Part shown: piece by piece, positions 18,975 to 21,900 of the stretch
Numbering within the stretch: position 1 is the stretch's first letter
How the letters are laid out: every line of letters begins with the position of its first letter
Notes under the pieces: model-generated
Database searches by the model: none
Told to the model about the DNA's origin: nothing
What the model saw: only the letters and a program-made list of their open reading frames with translations
IMG/VR virus record: IMGVR_UViG_3300022592_000245
Location: 1-64,000 of that record
Direction: 5' to 3' (one strand)
Length of the DNA stretch: 64,000 bases
Source of the DNA: a virus
Taxonomy: Duplodnaviria; Heunggongvirae; Uroviricota; Caudoviricetes
Translations under genes and position numbers: made by a program

Positions 18975-21900
18975 ATGGCAAAACAAATAATTGATATTGG
19001 TGTACAAGGTAACGACGGTACTGGTGATAGTATTCGTGAATCGTTCCGTAAAGTTAATGATAACTTTAACGAAATATATGCCATTTTTGGTATCGGTGGC
19101 ACTATTGGGTTCAGTAACCTAAGTGACGGTGTAGCTTATGGTCCTAATCAGGTTATTATGGGCGATACTACTGGTAGTACATTATCTGCTAGATATCTAA
19201 TAGCAGGCGATGGTATTGCTATCGATACAACCAATAATTCATCTGTAACCATTACTGCTAGTGCTGCTGGCTTAGCTGGTGATAGTTCGCCAACATTAAA
19301 TGCTCCGTTAAACGTTAACGGACTGCCAATCGGACGTATTCCAGACCCGAGCGATGATTTAGTTAGAGCGTTTAACCTAACATATCAATCTAGAAATATT
19401 ACTACTACAATCGATCAGTTGGCAATTAACAAAGGTTATGCTGATAGAACTTATGTTAAAATCGGCTCTGACGGGAAGGTTGCCAGTGCATTAAGAGTAA
19501 GAGACGAGCCAGCAAGCCCGCAAGTTAATGATGTAGATTACGATCCAACATTAACCGGTAATTATGTTTCAACTGAAGCAATGCAGCGTAAAGACGTTGT
19601 ATACCGCGGTGGTGACACAATGACAGGGTCGCTAACATTAAGCGATCACCCTGCACCAATGGCTGGGTATGGTACACCAAACGGTGCAAGTGATTTACAA
19701 GCTGCAACTAAATTCTATGTTGATAACAGTACATTCTCGAGTGCTGTAAACTTGTATGTTTCAACATCAACTGGTGATGATTTACAACAAAAAACTCCTT
19801 TAGGTAAGGAAGGACGTTACTGGCAATATGCTTATAAAACTATTGGTGCTGCTGCTTTACAAGCTGAAAACTTAATTAATATTGCTAGTCAAGAACCTGG
19901 ACCATATCGTCAACGAATTGCGTACACAATTGGACCAGATCAAACATTCAGTACAATTCAAAATATTACATTAAGTGGCGGAAATAGTGCAGATACAGGT
20001 TACACCGATGCATCTGATTTGTTAACTGCAAACAAAACATTTATTCAAGCAGAAACACTTGCCTATATTAATAACAAGTATGTAAATTCATTTACATACG
20101 ATAAAACAAAATGCCAACGTGATGTTCAACTTATTTTAGATGCTGTTGGTTACGACTTAGTATTAGGCACAACATTTAATACAACTCGCGCAGCAAGTTT
20201 ATATTTTGATGCTGCTTCAAGCAAAGTTACTGGCAGTCAATTAATTCAAACAATTGATGCAATTAAATTTGCTAGAGATCAAGTGTTAAACTTTTCATAT
20301 GATAGTACTTCATTAAGAACATACGTTGGAACTGTTATAAATGCTCTATGCTATGACTTGTTATTCCAAAGCAACTATCAAAGTATTCAGGCAGCTATTC
20401 AGTTTAACTATGCTGGTACAAAATTAAGTACAAGTCAAATTGGCGAAGTCCTTACTAATTTAAAAAATAATCTGTTAGGTGTTGCAGCAACTACTACTAT
20501 TGCTAGCGCAGAAAAAATTACTTCTATTGCCGGCACCGCTGGTTCAGCCACTATTATTGTAGGAACTAATACCGGGTTAGCAATAGGTATGCCAGTTGTC
20601 GGTACTGGTGTTGCTGCTGGGGCACGTATTTCACAAATTCTCGGTTCAACTATTACTTTAGACACAGTTAATCTAGCCGATGTGTCAGGCGACGGTATTT
20701 TTGGTACTAACGTTATTACTGTTGGATCAACAACTGGTATTGTTGCAGGACAACGCATTTCAGGTACAGGAATTATTACTGGTACAACAGTTGACCATAT
20801 CAGTGGCAATTTTGTATTCTTAAATGAAAACCCATCAGGTGTTGTGTCAGGTACAGGCGTGTTTACTACATCTACACCAGTAACACCAATTAGCAGTGCG
20901 GTTACATCTGTAACAAACAACATTAATTATATTATCAGTATTATTAACGGCGGTGATATTCCTGCCGTAAGTATGCCTACAACTACATCACAGGATGTAG
21001 GATATTCTAACGCTAGAGATTTGTTGTTAAACAATATTTCGTTTATTCAAGCAGAAACAGTAGCATATCTAGGAGCACAGTACCCGTCACTAGCATATGA
21101 TAAAACAGTTTGTAAACGAGATGTTGAGTACATTGTATGGTCATTAATTTACGACTTTATATATGGCGGTAATAGCCAATCAGTATACGCTGGCAGAATG
21201 TATTGGCAAAATGCAGTTCAGCAAATTGCTAGTTCTGAAGTGGCGCCAATTGTTGACGTATTAACTTATCTATCAACACTAATACAAGATATTGTAACCA
21301 ACATACAACCAACGACACTATATCAACAAAGCATTAGACAGTACACTAACGATACACTAACCGGCGGTAGCATCACAACTAGTTCAATTAGTGCAAACAT
21401 TTCATCAATTCAATCGCTAATTCAATCATCGTCATTCAGTCTTACAGTAACATATCCTACAACAAGTGCGGGAGCAACTGCGTTACAAACTGTTAGAACT
21501 AGTGTTTTAGCATTAACTACTACATATCAAAATAATGCGGTTAATTATGTTACTACAAACTTCCCAGTTATTAACGATGTTCCAACATTAAGTACAATCA
21601 GTTCATTATTCCAAATTGTAATTGATTTATTAACATATGGCATTAGCTCAAGACAAGCACCGACATTTACTAGCCCAGGAAGTTTAAGCGCAGGTAACAC
21701 TCATGCAAGACAACTATTGCTTGCAAACTTAGATTTTATCTCCGACGAAGTTAACGGATGGGTTGCATTAAACCATCCAGAAGTATCATATAGTGCTACT
21801 AAGTGTAAGCGCGATGTTATCTACATGCTTGAAGCAATTGCATATGATATTACATATGGTGGTAATAGTGCCAGTGTATTTGCAGGATTACAATACTGGC

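Follow-up and report, generated by a model that had tools for sequence, protein, structure and literature searches.

Three open reading frames in the window, the 64,000-nucleotide stretch analysed here (positions 1 to 64,000 of the virus record IMGVR_UViG_3300022592_000245), are opened by one segment of about 36 amino acids, and sequence comparison identifies this module as the N-terminal segment common to gp9 and gp10 of phage T4 (Pfam PF07880, T4_gp9_10_N). The proteins, referred to as A (3432 aa), B (293 aa) and C (200 aa), are an old paralogous set of distinct subtypes arranged in a fixed order. As the best explanation we consider it likely that they carry three subtype versions of a gp9/gp10-type head, which would act as trimeric plugs at three baseplate sites. 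The initial annotation had described three fibre proteins; their starts, lengths and N-terminal sequences were all confirmed, on the + strand, while the fibre assignment holds clearly for A, probably for B and poorly for C. The source is an uncultured jumbo phage with a contig of about 345 kb, and its nearest cultured relatives by clamp loader are PA5oct-like jumbo phages (54% identity).

Copy A of the module (18975..19085, +, residues 1-37) carries the A-type signature and is supported by translation, profile HMM and PHROG, Pfam and PDB matches. Copy B (29273..29380, +, residues 1-36), with the signature INIGxxANDKxGDPLRTAF, is supported by translation, HMM and a PDB match to gp10, and copy C (42517..42624, +, residues 1-36), with the signature INLGxYANDGTGDDLRTAF, by translation, HMM and hhalign. 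Over the first 40 residues identical positions number 22/40 (A-B), 18/40 (A-C) and 24/40 (B-C), and 16 alignment columns are invariant in all three. Formal alignment bears out the shared module of about 35 aa that had been noticed earlier: pairwise BLASTP gives E values of 8.7e-13 (A-B), 2.5e-10 (A-C) and 1.3e-11 (B-C), and ungapped BLOSUM62 scores over 35 aa reach 84-107 (z = 8.9-10.8), against a mean of about -29 and a maximum of 29 in shuffled controls (n=20,000). The window yields 866 stop-to-stop segments in six frames, and the module profile matched exactly three of them, at E values of about 1e-21 to 1e-27, with the next segment at E > 1; the profile HMM values for the single copies are 2.8e-21 (A), 1e-22 (B) and 6e-21 (C). 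No extra copies were found in the 10 kb past each window end. As DNA, the three copies are just 61-64% identical, so neither recent duplication nor gene conversion accounts for them.

A search for further occurrences of the module recovered 13,684 protein clusters (about 13,700), with proteins of 46 to 5743 aa, and in nearly all of them the module starts at residue 1. These clusters are mostly metagenomic and scarcely annotated, if at all, and many giants of 2000-5700 aa are among them; their first 36 or so residues mark them as probable baseplate-attached tail proteins. Tblastn with the module gave matches in 1721 phage genomes, which by organism counts are T4-superfamily phages; in a sample all rows (40/40) were T4-superfamily, and most sampled matches lay under features annotated as gp9 or gp10. 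The idea that the resemblance arose by chance, from low complexity or as a generic signal at the N-terminus deserves almost no credence against E values of 1e-10 to 1e-13, z scores of 9-11, exactly three profile matches and 13,684 related clusters; the module is polar and partly helical and does not constitute a signal peptide. Elsewhere, tandem arrays of 3-4 modules occur within single proteins, and these fit poorly with one plug per chain. An apparent 18-repeat match, P0179, proved to be a junk repeat protein and thus a spurious match.

The relationship to gp9 and gp10 was found by several methods. Phmmer against PDB matched the module to T4 gp10 (5hx2, 2fl8), to T4 gp9 (1pdp and others) and to the gp10 and gp9 chains of 9f4a, with E values of 1e-4 to 8e-3 and alignments beginning at chain residues 2-7; module B matched residues 2-41 of gp10. 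With hhalign the C family aligned to T4 gp10 at a probability of 92% (E 5e-7, 34 columns, 47% identity). Similarity of the module to gp9 is weaker than that to gp10 (hhalign E 0.002, 30-37% identity). Subtypes A, B and C each average 44-47% identity to the gp10 segment. The PHROG gp9/gp10 families were also recovered (677 at E 1e-14 and 958 at E 1e-7), module A matching family 677 at E 3.6e-14. Against the curated PF07880 gathering cut-off of 25 bits, N-terminal fragments of A scored above it (29.9 bits for 330 aa, 31.0 bits for 150 aa), B (18.7 bits) and C (14.3 bits) scored below it, and full-length A gave no match at E <= 0.1. Precomputed PF07880 matches are present in many A-type homologues and in some of the B and C types.

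This homology is confined to the extreme N-terminus. The whole PF07880 domain comprises the N-terminal segment and the next beta domain (XD1), and its full 175 positions are not covered: the match is to positions 1-37 to 1-49 for B and C, and to 1-47 or 1-96 for A. Alignment to T4 gp9 and gp10 by hhalign extends over 32-34 columns only, and the homology ends at about residue 36-45. The gp9/gp10 domains that follow, from XD1 onward, went undetected in B and C, with no more than a hint of them in A. Homologues of gp6, gp7, gp8 and gp25 were found neither in the 64-kb window nor in 10 kb on either side.

In T4, the gp9 trimer attaches to gp7 by the gp9 N-terminal domain (PMC3004832; bioRxiv 10.64898/2026.03.06.709160), sitting on gp7 domain III through a docking loop formed by gp7 residues 258-292 (bioRxiv 10.64898/2026.03.06.709160), and gp10 joins gp7 early during wedge assembly (PMC3004832). 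Because gp9 trimers dock on gp7 through this domain and gp10 belongs to the gp7-based wedge, baseplate docking is the best inference for the role of the module. The common docking domain proposed in the initial annotation thus gains support from homology, with docking itself argued from the T4 analogy. The module appears to be laid out as a short strand (Q-x-I-N/D-I-G), a loop (N-D-G-T-G-D) and an amphipathic helix (x-L-R-x-A-F-x-K-V-N-x-N-F-x-x-L-Y). AlphaFold2 monomer models were poor (mean pLDDT 62 for C and 63 for residues 1-330 of A, with the module in A at low confidence); the helix they predict spans residues 18-39 in C and residues 16-31 in A. Foldseek searches of PDB with these two models gave nothing at E < 0.1; a faint likeness to the chlamydial Pgp3 fold (E 0.35) was not significant.

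In the crystal structure of gp9, the N-terminus is a coiled coil. Together with the helix predicted at residues 16-39 and the tandem modules inside single proteins, this would suit a module that mainly nucleates trimerisation or folding as an N-terminal coiled coil, or that serves as a tag for a common assembly chaperone, and is not the baseplate contact itself. Such a role seems unlikely: module-headed proteins have Peptidase_S74 chaperones or a common GRV-type C-terminal domain, so that trimerisation is probably driven from the C-terminus, and module-only B-type ORFs of relatives (66-104 aa) have only the head to trimerise. In T4 gp9, moreover, the part that binds gp7 is this N-terminal domain (PMC3004832).

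ORF A (18975..29273, +) is by ORF list and PHROG evidence a giant tail fibre, 3432 aa long and with the module at its N-terminus. It matches PHROG tail-fibre families 5342 (E 1e-55) and 4527 (E 3e-43) and shares 64.6% identity over 2209 aa with the giant of the relative L005. Its C-terminal end (...AVGRV) is common to other module-headed giants; an S74-like motif, SDRRLKEN, terminates one related giant, and Pfam detects Peptidase_S74 in a related short protein. A PDB sequence search with residues 37-500 of A found nothing. Subtype and architecture are linked, since A-type modules head giant fibres of 2100-5743 aa in related metagenomic contigs and the A-type signature was present in every one of the giants (26/26) that reach 2000 aa among the best library matches; it specifically marks giant fibres.

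ORF B (29273..30154, +) occupies a variable cassette slot, and its start shares one base with the stop codon of A (TAATG). In this slot L005 has a 517-aa protein whose module is 80.6% identical to that of B and whose tail is unrelated to the B tail; orthologues flanking the slot are 45-65% identical between the two phages. Homologues of ORF B number only 54, with mosaic coverage, and the tails of 33 unique B-type proteins form 8 clusters that are unrelated to one another. Among A, B and C, exchange of the body as a cassette behind a conserved module is observed in the B slot only. B is probably a short fibre, its fibre features being motif-level hints only. For swapping receptor-binding bodies in this group of phages, the natural exchange point right after the module offers an obvious site. 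A role for B as adaptor for the cassette downstream was not adopted; in compact relatives C follows B directly with no cassette between. That cassette (30185..40679, +) is variable, lacks the module and encodes, by PHROG and Pfam, a 791-aa collagen-repeat fibre, a 1953-aa ORF without a PHROG or Pfam family and a 744-aa Laminin_G_3 lectin-like protein. It has no counterpart in the L005 cluster, which has a 326-aa Fibrinogen_C protein instead, and megablast of the fibre region against phage genomes gave no match.

ORF C (42517..43119, +) is a candidate baseplate or adaptor protein from a conserved module-headed family. Its 874 homologues, mostly 175-190 aa long, are found on contigs of up to 375 kb, and all unique C tails (65/65) belong to a single homology cluster. 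No fibre feature was detected in C, which resembles a small baseplate or adaptor protein more than it does a variable fibre. The gene lies in a conserved neighbourhood. Upstream is a papain-family protein (Peptidase_C1; 40697..41446, +; Pfam E 4.9e-20) that is conserved in the cluster and 60% identical to its L005 orthologue, itself directly upstream of the C homologue. The downstream partners of C (43132..46070, +) are a 790-aa protein with He_PIG Ig domains (Pfam E 1e-19) and a 189-aa protein; orthologues of both always follow C in L005 and L006, and the L005 proteins (781 and 194 aa, in the same order) are 64% and 45% identical to them, respectively. PDB sequence searches with the 790-aa and 1953-aa neighbours found nothing. 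The N-terminus of the 189-aa protein is vaguely like the module by eye, but as a diverged fourth copy it was rejected, hhalign giving no alignment.

The three subtypes are kept apart amongst relatives by their own conserved residues, among them D7, G12, S19 and S23 in A, K15 and P19 in B, and Y11 and D19 in C. Wherever all three genes are in reach they follow the order A, B, C (5/5 sources), and B precedes C in 37 further sources, the reverse order never being found. The initial annotation suggested that the three may be alternative or complementary receptor-binding fibres for one virion site, with a head probably spread by module shuffling between host-range determinants. The modules, 42-53% identical with their 16 invariant positions, might be cross-compatible, and the B slot does swap its body behind a conserved head; on that point shuffling is borne out. 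A single docking site is nevertheless improbable, as three distinct subtypes, each kept across relatives, co-occur in a fixed order, their DNA has diverged to the 61-64% identity given above, and the C family is conserved and non-variable, with its single tail cluster. An old paralogous triad does not agree with recent shuffling as the origin of the whole set. T4 gp9 and gp10 sit at separate sites on gp7. Both are also permanent components of the wedge, with 18 copies each (PMC3004832).

One chain each of A, B and C might instead pair through the helix, forming a heterotrimeric stem with three different distal parts as its branches. One compatible helix is present on three different proteins, and the TAATG overlap couples A and B translationally. 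The lengths of the three proteins are wildly different, however, and many relatives show, within the 10 kb fetched, two module-headed proteins only, or have module-only B ORFs. The C-terminal domain types of such fibres, moreover, are typical of homotrimers. The known proteins gp9 and gp10 are themselves homotrimers (PMC3004832), and a heterotrimeric stem is accordingly very improbable.

Under the preferred explanation of three gp9/gp10-type plugs, the modules on three chains of each protein would assemble into an N-terminal, trimeric knob, as the T4 proteins suggest, and this knob would plug the trimer into a baseplate wedge protein equivalent to gp7. Since the A-type module heads the giant fibre itself, the 3432-aa fibre would plug directly into the baseplate and need no separate connector. 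The B-type head would carry an exchangeable short protein, the body of which is swapped right after the module, and the C-type head would belong to a probable small baseplate or adaptor protein for the downstream 790-aa Ig-domain protein. A, B and C would occupy three different sites simultaneously. As a more tentative extension, the module subtypes could be address codes, each paired with a docking loop of its own on a gp7-like wedge protein of very large size. If so, giant fibre, exchangeable cassette protein and small adaptor would be set at defined baseplate positions, thousands of uncultured phages would share the code, and the baseplate position of a fibre could be read from its first 36 residues alone; proteins with 3-4 tandem modules might then be multi-plug adaptors.

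Among known systems, T4 gp10 (wedge subunit, tail pin; 5HX2, 5IV5, 2FL8) bears the same motif of about 35 residues from residue 2-3, reading MKQNINIGNVVDDGTGDYLRKGGIKINENFDELY, and T4 gene 10 shares one base with the module-headed gene 9 before it, as B does with A here. The XD1, XD2, XD3 and C-terminal domains of gp10 are undetectable in A, B and C and, unlike T4 gene 10, the three genes do not adjoin homologues of gp7, gp8, gp11 or gp12. T4 gp9 (tail-fibre connector; 1S2E, 1QEX) has the N-terminal motif in common with the module, and ORF C resembles it as a small trimer-sized protein with a module head. In T4 the docking of gp9 on gp7 domain III lets the long tail fibre swivel (PMC3004832; bioRxiv 10.64898/2026.03.06.709160), and the fibre (gp34-37) consists of separate proteins binding gp9, whereas here the A-type module is fused to the 3432-aa fibre. 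The T4 gp9/gp10 pair is thus extended to a conserved set of three members, in which a fibre is joined directly to a connector-type head. The closest cultured matches to the A module (52-59% identity) are gp9-like proteins of cyanomyoviruses and pelagimyophages, for example CPPG_00212 of the cyanophage P-RSM1 and Mosig_00104 of the pelagiphage Mosig. In these two the module stands at residue 1 of 414- and 579-aa proteins annotated as gp9-like or tail fibre; each is a single module gene in a baseplate cluster adjoining gp7-like and gp8 genes, with no triad and no giant fibre.

CBA120 TSP4 and RaK2 gp528 follow the same logic of a conserved N-terminal particle-binding part and variable distal receptor-binding parts (PMC8825819, PMC10253068, PMC6872550). 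As described, the TSP4 anchor domain is a triple-stranded beta-helix and the anchor of gp528 is without homologues outside its own genus (PMC8825819, PMC10253068). What systems of the CBA120/RaK2 type reuse is the XD domains of gp10; in this phage it is the extreme N-terminal gp9/gp10 segment. One conserved anchor on different fibre bodies is real but largely expected, and no new principle is involved, conserved N-terminal anchors with variable distal parts being already well documented. Finally, a second motif, D-x-x-P-x-L-G, is found about 85-120 residues from the start of A, B and C; its hhalign support is weak (E 0.002-0.02), and in its strict pattern it is present in 7/92 other module-headed proteins.

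Three open reading frames on the plus strand of the window begin with the same N-terminal segment of about 36 residues, here called the module: the giant fibre gene A (18975-29273, 3432 aa), B (29273-30154, 293 aa) and C (42517-43119, 200 aa). Their translations match exactly the starts quoted in the initial annotation, and the three N-termini align significantly by BLASTP, shuffling and profile scan alike. Within the first 40 residues, 22 positions are identical between A and B, 18 between A and C, and 24 between B and C, with 16 columns invariant across all three. Pairwise BLASTP E-values are 8.7e-13 (A-B), 2.5e-10 (A-C) and 1.3e-11 (B-C), and across 35 residues the ungapped BLOSUM62 scores come to 84-107 (z = 8.9-10.8), against a mean of about -29 and a maximum of 29 in 20,000 shuffles. 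A module profile, run without filters against all 866 six-frame segments of the window, matched A, B and C at E-values of 1e-21 to 1e-27; no other segment fell below E = 1, and no fourth copy was found. These three are also the sole matches in the window to a strict and a loose regular expression, and no further copy was found in the 10 kb past either window end, as taken from contigs encoding identical proteins. The module copies are only 61-64% identical in DNA and are therefore regarded as old paralogues rather than products of recent conversion.

By sequence comparison, the module is the N-terminal segment common to the baseplate proteins gp9 and gp10 of phage T4. Its sole relevant Pfam match is PF07880 (T4_gp9_10_N), which scores 29.9-31.0 bits with the N-terminal fragment of A, over the cut-off of 25, and 18.7 and 14.3 bits with B and C, both under it. 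The first 40 residues of A match PHROG 677 (gp9, E 3.6e-14) and PHROG 958 (gp10, E 1.6e-7). Searching PDB sequences with phmmer retrieved T4 gp10 (5hx2, 2fl8), T4 gp9 (1pdp among others) and, from entry 9f4a, chains of gp10 and gp9, all alignments of the module beginning at residues 2-7 of the solved chain. With T4 genes 9 and 10 as reference, a 50-member profile of the C family aligns with gp10 residues 3-36 (probability 92%, E 5e-7, identity 47%) and gp9 residues 10-41 (E 0.002). Both alignments end with the module and the later gp9 and gp10 domains were not detected, so that A, B and C are not whole-protein orthologues of either. The common N-terminus of gp9 and gp10 is itself already known, as a Pfam family; the two N-termini share 23% identity across the first 200 residues (PMC3004832). 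A tblastn search of 50,697 phage genomes with the A module matched 1721 records, which are T4-superfamily phages by organism counts and in 40 of 40 sampled rows. They include Straboviridae, cyanomyoviruses, the pelagimyophage Mosig and KVP40-like vibriophages, and the sampled matches lie mostly under features annotated gp9 or gp10.

Eighty related viral contigs with 10-kb flanks were fetched by the C-family profile and then scanned with the module profile; one module-headed ORF is found in 38 loci, two in 38 and three in 4. Heads were typed by signature, GDSIRESF defining the A-type and NDGTGDDL the C-type, with the remainder assigned to the B-type. The order A, B, C occurs in all five sources with the three genes in reach (the window, L055, L077, L082 and L084), B precedes C in 37 further sources, and the reverse order occurs in none. 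Type-specific conserved residues are D7, G12, S19 and S23 in the A-type, K15 and P19 in the B-type, and Y11 and D19 in the C-type; the 80 loci were chosen through C and the type definition partly overlaps these positions, while the gene order, A-type D7 and G12, and C-type Y11 are independent of it. A conserved three-member set of module-headed genes in a clade of uncultured jumbo phages is a new observation.

Each head type carries its own kind of protein. A-type proteins in the related loci are giants of 2405-3432 aa, and among the best matches of a library search every one of the 26 proteins with 2000 aa or more (up to 5743 aa) bears the A-type signature. The C-terminal domain of A is common to 19 of these 26, and one terminates in a chaperone motif of the Peptidase_S74 type. 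The fusion of a connector-type head straight onto giant fibres of up to 5743 aa is also new. C-type proteins are 149-709 aa long, their 65 unique tails all fall into one homology cluster, and the family has 874 detectable members, mostly of 175-190 aa. B-type proteins range from 66 to 1943 aa, and 33 unique ones fall into 8 unrelated tail clusters; for B itself only 54 homologues were found, and they cover it in a mosaic fashion. Fifteen related loci contain B-type ORFs of 66-104 aa that consist of the module and a short tail, situated directly upstream of the C-type gene in L008, L013, L014, L019, L024, L025, L047, L048, L050, L058, L066, L082, L087 and others. Their lengths recur (82, 85, 87, 89 aa), and they thus look like real genes rather than fragments.

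The clearest comparison is with L005, a relative on a 369-kb contig. Identity to the L005 counterpart is 64.6% for the giant fibre A, 60% for the peptidase, 57% for C, and 64% and 45% for the 790-aa and 189-aa proteins. At the gene position of B, the first 36 residues are 80.6% identical and the tails show no detectable similarity (293 aa versus 517 aa overall). The module there is more conserved than the neighbouring orthologues and the tail has been replaced, as would be expected if a partner holds the anchor constant and the body varies. This defined natural exchange point at the B position is likewise new. Between B and the peptidase lie three large ORFs without the module (30185-40679), encoding a 791-aa collagen-repeat protein, a 1953-aa protein without any family match and a 744-aa lectin-like protein with three Laminin_G_3 stretches. 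L005 has counterparts of none of them and encodes a 326-aa fibrinogen-like protein instead; this region is a hypervariable cassette. B starts on the last base of the A stop codon (TAATG, 29271-29275), and T4 genes 9 and 10, the two module-headed genes of T4, show the same one-base overlap (T4 locus L007, position 2086). A conserved 'SIM' is seen ahead of many B-type start codons and is probably due to the same overlap with a fibre gene whose end is conserved, as checked in the window.

No close DNA match was found among cultured phages. The clamp loader shares 54% identity with its counterpart in the Pseudomonas PA5oct group and 48-49% with those of Atu_ph07 and Phosso, and proteins identical to B and C are encoded on metagenomic contigs of up to 345 kb; the window is therefore taken to come from an uncultured jumbo phage whose replication genes are T4-like. 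Its fibre cluster lies outside any baseplate gene cluster, with radical-SAM, QueD, Fe-S and endonuclease genes upstream and genes for a DNA polymerase fragment, clamp loader, endolysin, deformylase and Clp-type ATPase downstream. In cyanophage P-RSM1 and Mosig, a single module-headed gene lies within the baseplate cluster, adjoining the gp8 gene and a gp7-like gene.

T4 gp9 and gp10 are homotrimers, the N-terminal domain of gp9 binds one gp7 domain, and gp10 joins gp7 at the start of a strictly ordered wedge assembly (PMC3004832). The gp9 trimer binds gp7 domain III via a docking loop, gp7 residues 258-292 (preprint, bioRxiv 10.64898/2026.03.06.709160). By homology, the modules of three chains would come together as a small trimeric knob of strand, loop and helix and grip a wedge protein of the gp7 type at a loop or domain. 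AlphaFold2 monomer models of C and A, both poor and with no significant fold match, place a helix at residues 18-39 and 16-31, respectively. The initial annotation had suggested a common docking domain: its homology to the gp9/gp10 N-terminus is established, docking is suggested by analogy with T4, and no gp7-like partner gene was found in the window or its 10-kb flanks. One common virion site, as also proposed there, is disfavoured. Conservation of each subtype, a fixed gene order and the tight link of subtype to architecture all suggest that the heads do not contest one site but would fill three distinct ones simultaneously. The module-only B-type ORFs suggest that an occupied B site may be important for assembly even where the distal part is missing, which would parallel the assembly role of T4 gp10. 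The weakest step of the model concerns C, which may serve the conserved 790-aa He_PIG protein as a socket in the manner of gp9, because this protein and the 189-aa protein come after C in both relatives examined. A design in which a conserved N-terminal part binds the particle and the distal parts can be exchanged is well documented from CBA120, RaK2 and Klebsiella phages (PMC8825819, PMC10253068, PMC6872550).

A 45-position profile of the three heads, searched against 1.84 billion cluster representatives, matched 13,684 proteins at E <= 0.001, of which 4,421 reach E <= 1e-10. The match begins at residue 1 in nearly all matches listed; among 139 of those listed, 41 are shorter than 150 aa (many of them truncated proteins), 48 fall in the range 150-499 aa, 24 in the range 500-1999 aa, and 26 reach 2000 aa or more. 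Three to four tandem module copies occur within one chain in a few proteins (P0175, P0176, P0182, P0185 and P0192; locus L090, 996-2141), and P0175 is encoded on a phage contig near a terminase gene. The main use of the finding lies in annotating many metagenomic proteins with little or no annotation and in choosing a swap point for engineering.

Some further features were observed. A matches Pfam Phycobilisome (26.7 bits versus a cut-off of 22.2, E 6e-6) at residues 1620-1699 (23832-24071), over a repeated helical motif C-x-R-D-V-x-x-I-x-D-A-x-x-Y-D-L with similar motifs at residues 380, 1629 and 1774. The match recurs faintly in relatives and is probably a recurrent helical domain of the giants, not a true phycobiliprotein. 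A second short motif, D-x-x-P-x-L-(G/N)-x-x-L, is common to A (residues 103-122), B (83-103) and C (90-109), some 50-70 residues past the module; it is statistically weak and not general among module-headed proteins. Two minus-strand ORFs (41436-42466), a QueC-like protein of 197 aa and an ORF of 152 aa, break the otherwise plus-strand run of fibre genes between the peptidase and C. L005 lacks both, and there the C homologue directly follows the peptidase. Along with QueD (16030-16578) and a number of radical-SAM genes (7375-12795), the two ORFs may point to a pathway of the 7-deazaguanine type that is dispersed around the fibre genes. A run of chaperone/protease-type genes (54236-57879), unusual as phage cargo, encodes a DnaJ-like protein (296 aa), a peptide deformylase (169 aa) and a ClpB/Clp-type AAA+ protein (760 aa), and a Band_7 protein (489-1340) and a ClpP-like protease (2036-2671) are located near the left window end. 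Finally, the sole match of a 164-aa ORF (46311-46805) is a DNA polymerase III alpha fragment (PHROG 11127); its L005 orthologue matches Pfam DNA_pol3_alpha, and it is kept as a small stand-alone gene in relatives.
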